Shown here in pieces: positions 4,435-48,562 of a stretch of DNA of 64,000 bases. Position 1 is the stretch's first letter, and the number at the start of each line of letters is the position of its first letter. The notes under the pieces were generated by a model. That model worked only from the letters and a program-made list of their open reading frames with translations. It made no database searches and was not told where the DNA came from. This DNA is from an uncultured Candidatus Saccharibacteria bacterium (GTDB lineage Bacteria; Patescibacteriota; JABMPQ01; JAQVVF01). Location: the NCBI GenBank assembly GCA_964574655.1, contig CAZNOH010000001.1, positions 471,020 to 535,019 of the forward strand. Reading direction: 5' to 3'. The position numbers and the translations under genes were made by a program.

Positions 4435-4517
4435 ATGCTTGAAAGTGTTTTAAAATATATTTGATGATGTATTCGTATTGATATAAATGTTTTTTTGTTG
4501 TAAAATAAGATAAATAA

Positions 4518-4970
4518 TTGCTTATGAAAATAAAAACTTTGTTATATTCTATTTTAGTGTTTTTAGCGGTTTTGTCAATTGTTGCATTGATAATGTCTTT
4601 TTGGCTAGGAGTTGCAAGTTCTTTTCGGTTAGTATTCGGTATTCTCTATATTCTGTTTATTCCCGGACTTATTTGGAGTTATGTGTTTTTCTCAAGCGCT
4701 GATTCAACGCTGATTTCTAACGCTGATAATACGCTGATAAAAAATACTGATAATAAAAAAGTAGAAGGTATTGATTCGATTGAAAGAATAATATTGTCAG
4801 TTGCTTTGTCGTTAGCTTTAGTGCCATTGGTTATTTTCTTTATAAATAAGATTGGCGTAAAAATTAATTTGATAAGTGTTGTGCTTGAGGTACTCGGAAT
4901 TATTTTAATTGGCATGACGATTTTAGTTGTTAAATATTTTTTGGATAGGAAAGTAGTAAGTAGAAAGTAG
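4518..4970 (+). CDS. small polytopic membrane protein (hypothetical)
   Basis: 150 aa, 4 predicted hydrophobic helices, and an internal SADSTLISNADNTLIKNTDN mini-repeat encoded by tandem ACGCTGAT units. Confidence 0.5.
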   Translation: MLMKIKTLLYSILVFLAVLSIVALIMSFWLGVASSFRLVFGILYILFIPGLIWSYVFFSSADSTLISNADNTLIKNTDNKKVEGIDSIERIILSVALSLALVPLVIFFINKIGVKINLISVVLEVLGIILIGMTILVVKYFLDRKVVSRK

Positions 4971-5008
4971 AAAGTCTACTTACTGCTTGCTACGTTCTGC
5001 ATTCTACT

Positions 5009-6112
5009 ATGCCACATTATGATATTTTGGTTGTTGGCGCTGGTTTTGCGGGCGCTGTAATTGCTGAAAGATTGGCATCCCAATTAGACAAAAAGGTTTT
5101 AATCATTGATAAAAGAAATCATATTGGAGGCAATTGTTATGATTGCTATGATAAATCAGGTGTTTTGATTCATAAGTATGGGGCTCATTTATTTCATACT
5201 GACAAGAAAGAAGTTTTTGATTATCTATCAAAATTTGCAAAATGGCATAAATATGAGCATAGAGTTAAGGCTAATATCAAGGGTGAAATTTATGACATGC
5301 CTATTAACTTGAATACCATTAATAAGTTCTTTAAAAAAGATTTTACCCAAGTTCAATGCCAAAAATATTTAAATAAAATTAAAGTTAATATTAAAAATCC
5401 AAAGAATGCAGAAGAGCAAGTTGTTTCACAAGTAGGCTGGGATATTTATAATAAATTTTTTAAGAATTATACAATCAAGCAATGGGAACGACATCCAAGA
5501 AAGCTTGACGCTTTAATAACTGCAAGAGTGCCTATTAGATTAAATACTGATGATAGATATTTCGATGACCCATATCAATTCATGCCGAAACTAGGTTTTA
5601 CTGATCTTTTTGAAAAAATATTAAGTCATAAAAATATAGAAATTAAGTTAAAAACTGATTTTAAGGAAATAAAGGATGGCATTGATTGCAAATTTATAAT
5701 ATACACTGGATGCATTGATGATTTCTTTGATAAAAAGTTTGGCGGACTTCCCTATCGATCATTAAAGTTTAGATTTAAGAATTATAATCAACCCTTTTTT
5801 CAAGAGCATACTGTAATAAATTTTCCAAATGAACATAAATATACAAAAGCTGTTGAGATTAAACATGCAACTAAGCAAAGAATAAATAAGACAACTGTTG
5901 GTTATGAATACCCTGCATCAGCTGGTGAACAATATTATCCTGTTTTTGAGCCTAAGAATGAAAAATTATATAATAAATATTCAAGATTAGCTGCAAAATT
6001 AAAAAATGTTTATTTTATTGGAAGATTGGCTGAGTATAAATATTATGATATGGATGATGTCGTCTTTAGAGCCTTGACTCTTTATAAAGAGATTGAAGGT
6101 AAGAAAAAATAG
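5009..6112 (+). CDS. glf: UDP-galactopyranose mutase (copy 1)
   Basis: N-terminal FAD-binding VVGAGFAGAV. Signature NHIGGNCYD and KYGAHLFHT motifs, and YFIGRLAEYKYYDMD at the C-terminus. Confidence 0.9.
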   Translation: MPHYDILVVGAGFAGAVIAERLASQLDKKVLIIDKRNHIGGNCYDCYDKSGVLIHKYGAHLFHTDKKEVFDYLSKFAKWHKYEHRVKANIKGEIYDMPINLNTINKFFKKDFTQVQCQKYLNKIKVNIKNPKNAEEQVVSQVGWDIYNKFFKNYTIKQWERHPRKLDALITARVPIRLNTDDRYFDDPYQFMPKLGFTDLFEKILSHKNIEIKLKTDFKEIKDGIDCKFIIYTGCIDDFFDKKFGGLPYRSLKFRFKNYNQPFFQEHTVINFPNEHKYTKAVEIKHATKQRINKTTVGYEYPASAGEQYYPVFEPKNEKLYNKYSRLAAKLKNVYFIGRLAEYKYYDMDDVVFRALTLYKEIEGKKK

Positions 6113-6161
6113 AGTTATTGTTTTATTGTCAAATTGCTAAATTGTTAAGAATTAATAACGT

Positions 6162-6197
6162 TAAGCAATTTAACAATTTAACAATTTAACAATTTAA
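6162..6197. repeat. tandem octamer (CAATTTAA)x4 flanked by an inverted ttgctaaattgttaag / cttaacgttaagcaa pair immediately upstream of the gmd start
   Basis: Read directly: gcaatttaacaatttaacaatttaacaatttaagctATG. Confidence 0.7.
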
Positions 6198-6200
6198 GCT

Positions 6201-46064: not shown

Positions 46065-46086
46065 AGCTTTTGGATCCGCCTTCGCC

Positions 46087-47370
46087 TCACTTCGTTCGGC
46101 TTCGGCGGACAAAGGGAAAATATACTAAAACCAAACAGAAAGCTGCCGAACAGCTTATCAGGATTAAACATATCATAATAACTTGGAAAAGTGAAGCGTG
46201 AAAAAAGCAAATTAAAATAATTTGTAATAATGATGCACTTATCAAGAATGGCAAAAAAATGAATTTCTTAATTGAAATTAAATAAGTAATAATAAGATTT
46301 AGGATTGAATACGCAGTCATAACTATGCTCATAACTCCTAGCAAATTACTGCCTTGTAAGTATTTTTCTCCAAAAAGCATCTTGATAATCTGATCTGGAA
46401 AGAAAAAATATAAGATATTTAAAATTATGCTTGTTACGATAACTAGCAAAAGCGCGACGAAAAATAGATGTTGATGTTTTTCTTGTCGCTCAAATTTTTC
46501 TGTCGCCATTGGCAAAAGGACTGAAGCAATGATGCCTGTTCCAAAAAAGATGATTCGGGTAAGCATTGCTAATGAGCTGTAAAGACCAGCCTGCAAATCA
46601 GTAAAATAGTGTTTGACTAAAATTAAGTCAATATTATATAAAAGTGTTAAGCAAAGAGAAGTAACAAAAAAATAGCTGATGCTTTGTATTTGTTTAGAAC
46701 TAATTTTTATTGGCTGAAGATCTTTCTGATTTATTTTACGAGAATTGAGATCTTTTATTAAAAAGTAAACAATAATTGCGCAGATAACTGAAGGAAAAAC
46801 AAACCCAGCTACAGCTCCGGAAACTGAAAATCCAAGCAAAACTAATCCAACACCTAATATGATTTTGAGTATAGTACCAATGACGTTAACAATGGAAAGT
46901 GCTTTGAATCTTTGCAAACCTTGTAAAATTGATATATAAAAACTGCCTACATAGGCAAGCACAAGGCATGAGGCCATGATTATTATTGGAATCTGCGAAA
47001 CTTTTAAATATCCAGCTATTGGACCAGAGAAGATTGTCAATGCTAAAAATATAATAATTCCAAAAAAGAAAAATTTCTTTTCAAAATAGGATTTAAACTG
47101 TGCGAGTTTTTTAAAGAGCTTCTTGGATTTTAATTCTGCAACTTTTCTAGTCCCTGCAATAATAATTGCACCGCCAATCATAGTAACAATTAAAAAAATA
47201 CTTTCTAGAGAAACTAATTGGCCATATTCGTCAACCGTAAGCACACGGCCTATTATTAAATTGAATAAGTAGTTTAAAACACTTGCTATTATTGTGCCAG
47301 CAAAAAGAACAGCTGTATTTTTAAAAAATAGACTGCTTAATAATTTTTGTTTGATTTTATATAACAACAT
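46087..47370 (-). CDS. Wzx-like flippase (MOP superfamily), second copy
   Basis: 427 aa, about 12 TM helices, NTAVLFAGTIIASVLNYLFNLIIGRVL N-terminus typical of Wzx/polysaccharide biosynthesis proteins. Confidence 0.75.
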   Translation of the reverse strand: MLLYKIKQKLLSSLFFKNTAVLFAGTIIASVLNYLFNLIIGRVLTVDEYGQLVSLESIFLIVTMIGGAIIIAGTRKVAELKSKKLFKKLAQFKSYFEKKFFFFGIIIFLALTIFSGPIAGYLKVSQIPIIIMASCLVLAYVGSFYISILQGLQRFKALSIVNVIGTILKIILGVGLVLLGFSVSGAVAGFVFPSVICAIIVYFLIKDLNSRKINQKDLQPIKISSKQIQSISYFFVTSLCLTLLYNIDLILVKHYFTDLQAGLYSSLAMLTRIIFFGTGIIASVLLPMATEKFERQEKHQHLFFVALLLVIVTSIILNILYFFFPDQIIKMLFGEKYLQGSNLLGVMSIVMTAYSILNLIITYLISIKKFIFLPFLISASLLQIILICFFHASLFQVIMICLILISCSAAFCLVLVYFPFVRRSRTK

Positions 47371-47380
47371 GATGCAAATA

Positions 47381-47560
47381 TGCTAATTTATGCCAATCTA
47401 CTAATTGCTAATGAGAATAGTCACAATCTGAAAATTATTAATATAATTGATAATATTATTTTTATAGTATACAATATAAAATAAGTTATTGCGAATTAGC
47501 TAAGTATATTATTTCGATTGGCAATTAGCATTATTGGCATAAGATTTGTAGATTAGCATC
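47381..47560. promoter_or_regulatory. divergent promoter region with at least 5 copies of an AATTAGC(A/T)/GCTAATT motif in both orientations
   Basis: tgctaattta, ctaattgctaatg, gcgaattagctaag, gcaattagcatta, gattagcatc. Lies between the minus-strand flippase start and the plus-strand UDP-xylose synthase start. Confidence 0.45.
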
Positions 47561-47574
47561 ATAATAAAATATTT

Positions 47575-48513
47575 ATGAAACGCATTTTAATAACAGGAGG
47601 AGCAGGATTTATTGGTTCGCATTTATGCGAATATTTATTGAAAAAAAATCACGAAGTAATTTGTGTTGATAATTTTTTTACTGGCCAAAAAAACAATGTC
47701 AAACATTTATTAAAAAATCCTTATTTTGAAATTATCAGACATGATGTAACTTGGCCTTTGTATGTTGAGGTTGATCAGATTTATCATCTTGCTTCACCTG
47801 CTGCACCAATTCATTATCAAAAAGATCCGATTCAAACGACAAAAACTAATGTATTAGGCGCAATTCAAATGCTTGGCTTGGCTAAAAGATTGAAAATTAA
47901 AATCTTGCTGTCTTCAACTTCAGAAGTTTATGGCGATCCAAAAGTTCACCCGCAGAAAGAAAGCTATTGGGGTAATGTCAATTGTTTAGGTCCTAGAGCG
48001 TGCTACGATGAAGCAAAAAGATGCGCAGAGACATTATTTATGGATTATTGGCGGCAAAATAAGGTAAAGATAAAAATTGTGAGGATTTTTAATACTTACG
48101 GTCCCAGGTTAGCTATGAATGATGGCCGAGTGGTTTCTAATTTTCTTATCCAGGCTTTGCAAAATGAACCAATTACTATTTATGGCAAAGGCACGCAGAC
48201 TCGATCTTTTTGTTATGTTGATGATTTAGTCAGAGGACTTTATAAAATGATGGAAACTGATGACAAAATTACTGGGCCAATAAACTTAGGAAATCCTGGA
48301 GAATTTACAATGTTGGAACTTGCAAAGCTTGTAATTAAAATGACGAAATCTAAAAGCAAAATTATTTATGAGCCATTGCCAATTAATGATCCAAAACAAA
48401 GAAAGCCGGATATTGCATTGGCTAAAAAAGTTTTGAATTGGTCTCCAACAATCAATCTTGTTTCTGGACTCAAGAAAACAATCCCATATTTTAAAACTAA
48501 GATAAAGAATTGA
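47575..48513 (+). CDS. UDP-glucuronate decarboxylase (UDP-xylose synthase)
   Basis: [19 protein letters not shown]...[21 protein letters not shown] (YxxxK). The UXS/ArnA-decarboxylase pattern. 312 aa. Confidence 0.85.
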
Positions 48514-48562
48514 TTTATTGTTCTTTTAAAAACTAAATCACAACCAGACAAGGAGGACAGAG

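Follow-up and report, generated by a model that had tools for sequence, protein, structure and literature searches.

How can a surface glycan be assembled by a gene cluster in which no initiating phosphoglycosyl transferase (PGT) is found? The question is raised by a locus at 4.5–48.5 kb of a 64-kb stretch of DNA (the window) from contig CAZNOH010000001.1, which is at least 654 kb long and belongs to a member of the Patescibacteria, or candidate phyla radiation (CPR). With its 35 tightly packed genes and a length of ~44 kb, the locus takes up ~7% of the 654-kb contig. It is probably a strain-variable cell-surface glycan cluster that uses polyprenyl-monophosphate sugars and extracytoplasmic GT-C transferases, and not a PGT/Wzy pathway. 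Gram-positive bacteria, mycobacteria and archaea are known to have a mechanism of this kind, and the locus is a variant of it, not a new kind of system; what is notable here is the presence of five GT-Cs, the pairing of AftD-like and AglB-like families with GtrB-type donors, and the CPR host with its minimal genome. The surface chemistry of Patescibacteria, which live as cells attached to other microbes, is almost entirely uncharted, and literature searches brought up no paper that connects CPR bacteria to GT-C or AftD-like enzymes. The locus offers concrete enzymes for the question of PGT-independent glycan assembly.

A preliminary description had proposed that polyprenyl-phosphate sugar synthases and extracytoplasmic GT-Cs operate here without a PGT, Wzy or Wzz, and this core logic is borne out. 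Pfam scans took in every open reading frame (ORF) of the window of at least 150 aa, and none matched PF00953 (WecA/MraY), PF02397 (WbaP/PglC), Wzy_C, Wzz, GtrA, ABC-transporter or LCP families at E<=0.01. At a permissive E<=5, the same families were also absent from the small or unassigned ORFs 7283, 4225, 24493, 18015, 37898 and 25166 and from the soluble part of 20955 (genes are named by their first coordinate in the window), in agreement with the original claim that WecA/WbaP, Wzy and Wzz are missing from the locus. The gaps between the locus genes are too small for an undetected gene of at least 200 aa. Thus, of the components of a Wzx/Wzy O-antigen or capsule pathway (PGT, Wzy and Wzz or another polysaccharide co-polymerase, PCP), none was detected in the window, and Wzx alone is present.

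Three GT2 enzymes, initially described as GtrB/ArnC-like, are by homology cytoplasm-facing polyprenyl-phosphate glycosyltransferases, and comparison with the structures 5EKP and 5MLZ, the NCBIfam models and the DxD motif divides them into two GtrB-type proteins (39073 and 45135) and one of the DPMS/AglJ type (19769). The first GtrB-type enzyme (39073-40005, minus strand) ends in two transmembrane (TM) helices and matches Synechocystis GtrB (PDB 5EKP) with E 1e-69 over its full length (residues 5-305), as well as PgfS (NCBIfam, E 5e-72) and, again at full length, ArnC (E 1e-42). The second (45135-46112, minus strand) is 35% identical to it over 305 aa, the full length, and has the same two top NCBIfam models, PgfS (E 2e-65) and ArnC (E 3e-37). 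In 19769 (19769-20941, minus strand), a GT-A domain is followed by four C-terminal TM helices according to hydropathy, which is the architecture of the P. furiosus DPMS 5MLZ (E 1e-18, residues 14-259). Its top NCBIfam models, all of them under their cutoffs, are AglJ TIGR04182 (E 2e-48), a haloarchaeal Dol-P hexose transferase (E 1.5e-33) and PpgS (E 6e-24). C-terminal TM helices are common to all three synthases, as is a DxD motif at the canonical position (DSDLQDP in 39073, DADLQHP in 45135 and DSD at residue 98 in 19769). The DPMS/AglJ-type enzyme is the candidate initiator of a lipid-linked glycan.

Five large polytopic proteins (15322, 20955, 25166, 26886 and 35660), previously called GT-C-like, are members of the GT-C(A) superfamily by homology or fold. 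The assignment is confirmed at the superfamily level and is least secure for 20955. Membership is backed by an N-terminal multi-TM bundle that superposes on solved GT-C(A) enzymes and by an acidic residue in the first extracytoplasmic loop after TM1. This loop carries a GGD42 motif in 15322, where D42 and H46 occur in at least 90% of 75 homologues, a GD motif that is the family consensus in 26886, an invariant D44 in 25166, and D57 and D77, both invariant within the family, in 35660, while that of 20955 has one Asp only, judged from a single sequence. The families are also mutually homologous, as hhalign gives probabilities of 99% for the family of 26886 and 97% for that of 35660 against the family of 15322. 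By type, 15322 is AglB/STT3-like, 35660 is ArnT/PMT-like with a carbohydrate-binding module (CBM), 26886 and 25166 are AftD-like, and 20955 is remote. It is solely from the co-encoded synthases that we infer the use of polyprenyl-phosphate sugar donors by these five proteins on the extracytoplasmic side.

The AglB/STT3-like enzyme (15322-16857, minus strand) carries an AglB-S-like C-terminal domain and belongs to a family with 153 homologues in an exhaustive search. Among 75 scanned homologues, 21 match DUF6541, seven PTPS_related, three STT3 and three EpsG. The family profile matches the AglB N-terminus, the AglB-S2 C-terminal domain and 3VU0, and the overall fold, including the C-terminal globular domain, is that of STT3/AglB/PglB. 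The match of 15322 to the Wzy-like EpsG is weak (20.7 bits against a threshold of 30.1), and a homologue with 64% identity likewise has a weak EpsG match. No Wzy, WaaL or SEDS protein is found among the matches listed for 15322, which is therefore a GT-C(A) enzyme and not a Wzy- or WaaL-type polymerase or ligase; its AglB/STT3-like fold contradicts both of these roles, and none of the five proteins was found to be a Wzy or O-antigen ligase. Neither the five GT-Cs nor any of the 75 homologues of 15322 contain a WWDYG motif, and in the profile alignment to 3VU0 its place is taken by a gap. Because WWDYG is absent, 15322 is not a canonical oligosaccharyltransferase, and it is regarded as a candidate en-bloc transferase.

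The remaining GT-Cs are encoded on the same strand. The ArnT/PMT-like enzyme (35660-37870, minus strand) bears a C-terminal CBM-like beta-sandwich. The AftD-family protein 26886 (26886-29261, minus strand; 791 aa) consists of an N-terminal TM bundle, a ~310-aa extracytoplasmic domain and a C-terminal TM helix. It matches PF11847 (GT-C_AftD/DUF3367) at 28.2 bits with a gathering threshold of 26, its homologues are also annotated with PF11847, and its family profile recognises the mycobacterial AftD structures 6W98/6WBX with E 2.4e-5. Its paralogue 25166 (25166-26902, minus strand; 578 aa) has no Pfam match and aligns to the AftD-like family with 98.6% in hhalign (E 5e-16, 453 columns). Among the homologous loci fetched for comparison (numbered L001 onwards), homologues of 25166 come immediately after the AftD-like gene in L002 and L003, and L012 has one such gene 4.3 kb upstream of its AftD-like genes. 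Next to 25166 is a 203-aa membrane protein with four TM helices and no Pfam match (24493-25104, minus strand), the C-terminal ~60 aa of which are found again in other phyla, encoded directly behind AftD-like GT-C genes (L001/L008, 12705-13148; L025, ~14883-15077; L011, ~16697-16858). Judging by this recurrence, 24493 may be a conserved partner of AftD-like GT-Cs, such as a flippase, activator or accessory protein.

The largest of the five, 20955 (20955-24560, minus strand), has 1181-1201 aa, since its TTG start is probably over-extended and the ATG at 24500 is likelier. It contains ~11 N-terminal TM helices and a ~770-aa extracytoplasmic region without family assignment, and matches PF20176 (DUF6541) with E 1.8e-3, under the gathering threshold. 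Its TM domain aligns collinearly in hhalign with the 15322 family (92.6%), the AftD-like family (84%) and the 25166 family (81%). No close homologues were found in a metagenome scan, and the fetched loci yielded one marginal match, the 25166-like gene of L003 (E 4e-4).

In a related assembly (L031/L032), a block of AglJ-like GT2, GT4, GT4, the GT-C 15322, GT4, GT2, further GT4s and Wzx is kept at 61-70% identity. In a close Patescibacteria relative, JBAZSC010000001.1 (L034 and L035), the locus occupies an equivalent position, flanked by CysDN and a subtilase. The left end is common to both, with DUF1616, glf, gmd and reductase genes at 64-94% identity (64% for DUF1616, 80-94% for the other end genes), and so is the right end, where the genes for a radical S-adenosylmethionine (rSAM) enzyme, GT2, GtrB, Wzx2 and a UXS-like protein share 80-91%. 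About 28 of the ~46 kb of the relative's locus were recovered, the central ~17 kb not being included. The recovered interior differs: Wzx1 is 32% identical, none of the five GT-Cs has a counterpart in it, and it contains different sugar-modifying genes. Conserved ends and a different recovered interior are those of a serotype-like variable surface-glycan locus, as in O-antigen and capsular polysaccharide (CPS) loci. The earlier contention that this is not a standard O-antigen or capsule cluster thus stands as regards the missing PGT, Wzy and Wzz, but not as regards the layout, since conserved flanks around a variable interior are what such a locus looks like. As ~7% of the contig is devoted to a locus whose recovered interior differs from that of a close relative, strong diversifying selection on the surface glycan is suggested, for example by host recognition, phage or predation pressure.

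The order Wzx2-GtrB-GT2-rSAM (41877-47370) is kept in L034 (6762-11455) and in Falkowbacteria L001 (1-4654), where this core adjoins an AftD-like gene and a homologue of 24493. Such a core suggests modification of a lipid-linked sugar. Other CPR lineages, Bathyarchaeia and Aenigmatarchaeota also have relatives of the AftD-like proteins, which are often encoded by tandem paralogous genes (L005, L012, L016, L020 and L029). It is apparent from the locus that GT-Cs of the AftD-like and AglB-like families, most familiar from mycobacteria and archaea, are used together with GtrB-type donors in CPR, DPANN and Bathyarchaeia.

The GT2 and GT4 enzymes were counted anew. Pfam recognises seven GT2 enzymes (13126, 19769, 29263, 34851, 39073, 44147 and 45135) and seven clear GT4 enzymes (10979, 12052, 14114, 16854, 18560, 32452 and 33697), which with the divergent 37898 gives 14-15 glycosyltransferases (GTs) and lowers the original figure of about 17. 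On the plus strand, a GT4 pair (10979-12049 and 12052-13149) matches PF00534 with E 3e-28 and 1e-16. All other Leloir enzymes are on the minus strand, including a GT2 at 13126-14127 (PF00535, E 8e-30) and a GT4 at 14114-15319 (PF00534, E 2e-35), which are syntenic in L031 with 65% identity. Further GT4s matching PF00534 are found at 16854-17963 (E 2e-44), 18560-19687 (E 1e-41), 32452-33681 (E 2.5e-26) and 33697-34854 (E 7e-35), and further GT2s matching PF00535 at 29263-30174 (E 2e-24) and 34851-35663 (E 4e-29). The divergent GT-B/GT4-like protein at 37898-39070 has weak matches only (PF13692, E 2.7e-3; PF13439, E 0.05). A membrane-anchored GT2 (44147-45124; PF00535, E 1e-11) lies beside the GtrB-type gene 45135, and this pairing is conserved, with 85% identity of the GT2 in L034 and 62% in L001. 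It is also 38-41% identical to proteins of Aenigmatarchaeota and Bathyarchaeia loci that have AftD-like genes as well.

For the precursor and export functions, Pfam matches agree with the two glf genes, the gmd and reductase genes, the RmlD-like short-chain dehydrogenase/reductase (SDR) and the two Wzx flippases listed at the outset. UDP-galactopyranose mutase Glf1 (5009-6112, plus strand; PF03275, E 2e-68) is 83% identical to the copy in L035, and shares 53% identity with its paralogue Glf2 (30322-31410, plus strand; PF03275, E 1e-67), the substrate of which could differ. The GDP-mannose 4,6-dehydratase Gmd (6201-7274, plus strand; PF16363, E 4e-136) is accompanied by a Gmd-like SDR (7652-8569, plus strand; PF16363, E 2e-63) with gmd as its top NCBIfam model (133 bits; Fcl 53 bits), which is a probable Rmd-like GDP-4-keto-6-deoxymannose reductase, its product being inferred. 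The ~375-bp gap between these genes contains a 119-aa ORF with a TTG start (7283-7642, plus strand) and no family or homologue; as gmd and the reductase gene abut in the relative, it may be spurious or a recent insertion. An RmlD-like reductase SDR is located at 31451-32353 (minus strand; PF04321, E 4e-56; TIGR01214, 194 bits and thus under the 224-bit cutoff). The SDR at 47575-48513 (plus strand; PF01370, E 7e-52) is UXS-like, that is, of the UDP-glucuronate decarboxylase family, by name only, as a 91%-identical relative carries the NCBI name 'UDP-glucuronic acid decarboxylase family'.

Of the flippases, Wzx1 (8624-10069, plus strand) matches PF01943 with E 8e-34 and Wzx_EPS with E 6e-27, and the Wzx-type (MOP) protein Wzx2 (46087-47370, minus strand; PF01943, 57 bits, above the gathering threshold) is a candidate lipid-P-sugar flippase. 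Modification is represented by an FkbM-family methyltransferase (10056-10982, plus strand; TIGR01444, 75 bits, above the cutoff; PF05050) and, on the minus strand, by two paralogous S-adenosylmethionine (SAM) methyltransferases with 47% mutual identity (40018-41871; PF13489, E 5e-16 and 1e-18), another SAM methyltransferase (43362-44108; PF08241, E 1e-17) and a B12-binding rSAM enzyme (41877-43337; PF04055 and PF02310). The latter shares 91% identity with its counterpart in L034 and 72% with that of Falkowbacteria L001; its top NCBIfam model is the hopanoid enzyme HpnJ (158 bits, far under the cutoff), and it is probably a sugar C-methylase or modifier. At the left end lies a 150-aa DUF1616 membrane protein with 4-5 TM helices (4518-4970, plus strand; PF07760, E 4e-14), 64% identical to a 144-aa gene product at the same position in L035. 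In five of the 75 homologues of 15322 and in a 700-aa protein of L035, DUF1616 forms the N-terminal part of a fusion with a DUF6541-type GT-C, and by this comparison the 4518 product may be an accessory module that was split off from a GT-C. The L035 sequences compared here lie at 1-1592 and 8408-8842. A 177-aa secreted protein with a Sec signal (18015-18548, minus strand) has no family match and is absent from the syntenic block of L031. It is a 32%-identical paralogue of a secreted 252-aa protein in the right flank (56946-57704, plus strand), with which it shares the N-terminus and a C-terminal 'ITVY', the larger protein also having TGAVTxDKLG repeats. The 18015 product is a possible glycosylation substrate or accessory protein.

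The host of the locus is a bacterium. Gmd, CysD, the UXS-like SDR and the rSAM enzyme each fall into a cluster of at least 90% identity with proteins from metagenome-assembled genomes named 'Patescibacteria group bacterium'. An archaeal origin, considered on account of the DUF1616, AglJ and AglB similarities, is ruled out by these Patescibacteria relatives and by lipobox lipoproteins. Two paralogous Cys-rich lipoproteins (50899-52697, plus strand), with 35% identity and a LASC lipobox, are encoded downstream of the subtilase. The GC content is ~30% for the window and 0.27-0.30 for the locus interior, slightly under that of the flanks (0.33-0.36), and neither Rfam nor a tRNA search picked up any RNA gene in the window, rRNA and tRNA genes included. 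Directly upstream of the locus are CysN and CysD (sulfate adenylyltransferase; 1919-4101, minus strand), an arrangement that is kept in the relative; a possible supply of 3'-phosphoadenosine 5'-phosphosulfate (PAPS) for glycan sulfation has been raised, and no sulfotransferase was seen. In addition, two large secreted proteins at 57837-62146 (minus strand) contain multiple MopE-type Cu-binding repeats and Laminin_G_3 or C-type lectin domains. Their GC content is 0.41-0.50, compared with ~0.30 for the genome, and a homologue is also found beside the relative's locus.

Taken together, these enzymes would form a pathway in which the three GT2 synthases make lipid-monophosphate sugars on the cytoplasmic face of the membrane. 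The module at 8.6-20.9 kb would act in the manner of the lactococcal polysaccharide pellicle (PSP) or haloarchaeal Agl systems, with 19769 making a lipid-P-sugar, which neighbouring GT4 and GT2 enzymes probably extend with UDP-Galf, GDP-6-deoxyhexose and other donors. After Wzx1 had flipped the extended product, the AglB-like 15322 would attach it en bloc to a protein or to a polymer of the wall. The lipid-P-monosaccharides would come from the GtrB-type synthases; the SAM and B12-rSAM enzymes may methylate them, Wzx2 or the small TM proteins would flip them, and 35660, 26886, 25166 and 20955 would add or polymerise these sugars outside the membrane, where the CBM-like domains may hold the acceptor glycan.

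Several observations weigh against a monophosphate-based pathway as outlined here. Only 64 kb of the contig were covered, which leaves room elsewhere for an initiator of the WecA/TagO or WbaP type. The three synthases miss the NCBIfam equivalog cutoffs (PgfS 243/500, ArnC 164/529 and AglJ 165/325 bits) and are for this reason placed by family, not by sugar. Of the 30 fetched loci, only 7 have a gene for a full-length synthase at a distance of up to 10 kb from AftD-like genes (6 of 29 distinct ones, L001 and L008 being the same contig), and the co-occurrence therefore gives partial support only. The GT-C placement of 20955 comes from hhalign values of 81-93% for one sequence, and the structure model of 35660 has a pLDDT of only 63. 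The GtrA-family flippase (PF04138) of Gtr three-component systems is not found in the window. On the precursor side, the window has no RmlA/B/C to feed the RmlD-like SDR and no Ugd, the UDP-glucose dehydrogenase that would be the UDP-glucuronate source for the UXS-like enzyme. UDP-xylose synthesis, another element of the preliminary description, is plausible but unproven, because no NCBIfam cutoff is reached and Ugd is missing from the window.

A competing explanation is that the locus makes a conventional C55-PP-linked, Wzx-dependent glycan with its PGT encoded outside the window, and that the GtrB-type synthases and GT-Cs only decorate it in a Gtr-like manner or ligate it. This reading, which partly overlaps with the preferred one, is a tentative but real possibility: only ~10% of the contig was inspected, wecA offers a parallel in that it lies outside the E. 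coli rfb clusters, two Wzx proteins and ~11 Leloir GTs resemble a standard repeat-unit assembly line, the layout with conserved flanks and variable centre is typical of O-antigen and CPS loci, and Gtr-type decoration systems are common (PMC11127046). On the other hand, the window has no Wzy, Wzz/PCP or LCP ligase, a DPMS/AglJ-type synthase heads the conserved block of GT4, GT-C and Wzx genes, and five GT-Cs with three synthases far exceed the usual need of simple decoration. The locus may also be read as protein glycosylation of an archaeal-Agl-like kind. Once Wzx1 had flipped the oligosaccharide, 15322 would act as an oligosaccharyltransferase and attach it to secreted or S-layer-like proteins, the 18015 product and its 56946 paralogue being candidates. 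AglJ is the best named relative of 19769, the family profile of 15322 matches the AglB N-terminus and 3VU0, a gene for a Sec-signal protein lies inside the operon, and the family includes archaeal-type DUF1616 fusions and has relatives in Bathyarchaeia and DPANN, but WWDYG is lacking in 15322 and in all 75 family members examined, and 18015 is missing from the L031 block, which makes this reading unlikely. A bolder version is more doubtful still, according to which 15322 founds a new bacterial oligosaccharyltransferase class without WWDYG, in an archaeal-Agl-like pathway (priming of a lipid monophosphate by the DPMS/AglJ-type GT2, extension by Leloir GTs, flipping by Wzx) that glycosylates surface proteins for episymbiotic host contact, the module being common to DPANN and Bathyarchaeia through inter-domain transfer.

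Finally, the AftD-like GT-Cs might polymerise furanosides in mycobacterial style, building a Galf or pentofuranose polymer from a polyprenyl-P-furanose donor. The presence of two AftD-family GT-Cs and of two Glf paralogues, with Glf2 encoded near the AftD-like genes and adjoined by the RmlD-like SDR, is in line with this very improbable scenario. However, no window ORF encodes a UbiA-type polyprenyl-phosphoribose synthase (PPPRS), DprE1/E2 or a PRPP-dependent enzyme, and the supply of donor for an AftD arabinofuranosyltransferase is therefore absent within the window; moreover, the synthases are of the GtrB and DPMS types, the characterised members of which act on pyranose NDP-sugars. The mycobacterial GlfT1/2 are cytoplasmic Leloir GTs that use UDP-Galf. 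In PSP as well, UDP-Galf is consumed by cytoplasmic Leloir GTs (PMC10821137). The link that had been drawn between Galf and the GT-Cs is hence unsupported, as UDP-Galf is used by cytoplasmic enzymes in the known systems and the window is without a UbiA-type synthase and DprE1/E2.

The preferred reading, a variable glycan cluster based on polyprenyl-monophosphate sugars and GT-Cs, can be set beside four known systems. To call the pathway 'unusual', as was done at the outset, is overstated, both because a PGT could lie elsewhere and because PSP and the streptococcal group A carbohydrate (GAC) are precedents without a PGT (PMC10821137); the word holds only in a relative sense, because Gram-positive and archaeal precedents exist. 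The haloarchaeal Agl pathway (AglJ, AglG/I/E, AglB, AglD/AglS) resembles the locus in its AglJ-like GT2, in the oligosaccharide that would be carried on a lipid monophosphate, in an AglB-like GT-C encoded in an operon with Leloir GTs, and in an extra step with a lipid-P-monosaccharide and a GT-C. It differs in that AglB is a much longer protein than 15322, which has no WWDYG, the host here is bacterial (lipobox lipoproteins, Patescibacteria relatives), and a protein acceptor is only a candidate. Both this pathway and mycobacterial PpgS/Rv3779 combine GT2-made lipid-monophosphate sugars with Wzx-type flippases and GT-C transferases. Mycobacterial arabinan and lipoarabinomannan (LAM) synthesis (AftA-D, Emb, PimE; PpgS-Rv3779) likewise uses lipid-P-sugar donors and multiple GT-Cs, including the AftD family with large extracytoplasmic domains, and shares the PpgS-like similarity of 19769 and the Galf-containing glycan precursors. 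The decaprenyl-phosphoarabinose (DPA) pathway (UbiA, DprE1/E2) is missing here, and the AftD-like proteins, with 578-791 aa, are about half the size of the ~1400-aa mycobacterial AftD, to which their similarity is remote (profile E 2e-5).

Three-component systems glycosylate extracytoplasmically with a lipid-P-sugar synthase, a flippase and a GT-C (PMC11127046). Gtr-type and GT136 systems (GtrA/B/V; Citrobacter ORF15/14/12; PMC11127046) share with the locus a synthase, a flippase and a CBM-bearing GT-C for extracytoplasmic glycosylation after assembly, whereas here there is no GtrA or UbiA-type PPPRS, the candidate flippase is the MOP/Wzx-type 46087 beside 45135 (cf. GacK, PMC10821137), several systems are gathered in one locus, and the GT-Cs are of other families. 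In lactococcal PSP and streptococcal GAC (WpsA/B or GacI/J, WpsG/GacK, WpsJ/GacL), the GT2 WpsA/GacI makes GlcNAc-P-C55, which in PSP is extended by Leloir GTs, including with Galf, and Wzx-type flippases and GT-C transferases complete the route; a route that a GT2 acting on C55-P begins without a PGT, and that goes on through Leloir extension, flipping by Wzx and transfer by a GT-C, has been shown or proposed (PMC10821137). The likeness to the present locus lies in the GT2-made C55-monophosphate sugar without a PGT for that chain, in Leloir extension that includes Galf from a locus-encoded Glf, in a Wzx-type flippase with an extracytoplasmic GT-C, in extra three-component systems for side chains and in a strain-variable locus. 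The window lacks the rhamnan backbone genes (RmlA-C, RgpA-F, ABC exporter) and the LCP ligase of those systems. The synthases here carry fused TM helices instead of the GacJ/WpsB partner, and a CPR host has five GT-Cs of AglB-, AftD- and PMT-like kinds where PSP and GAC have one or two.

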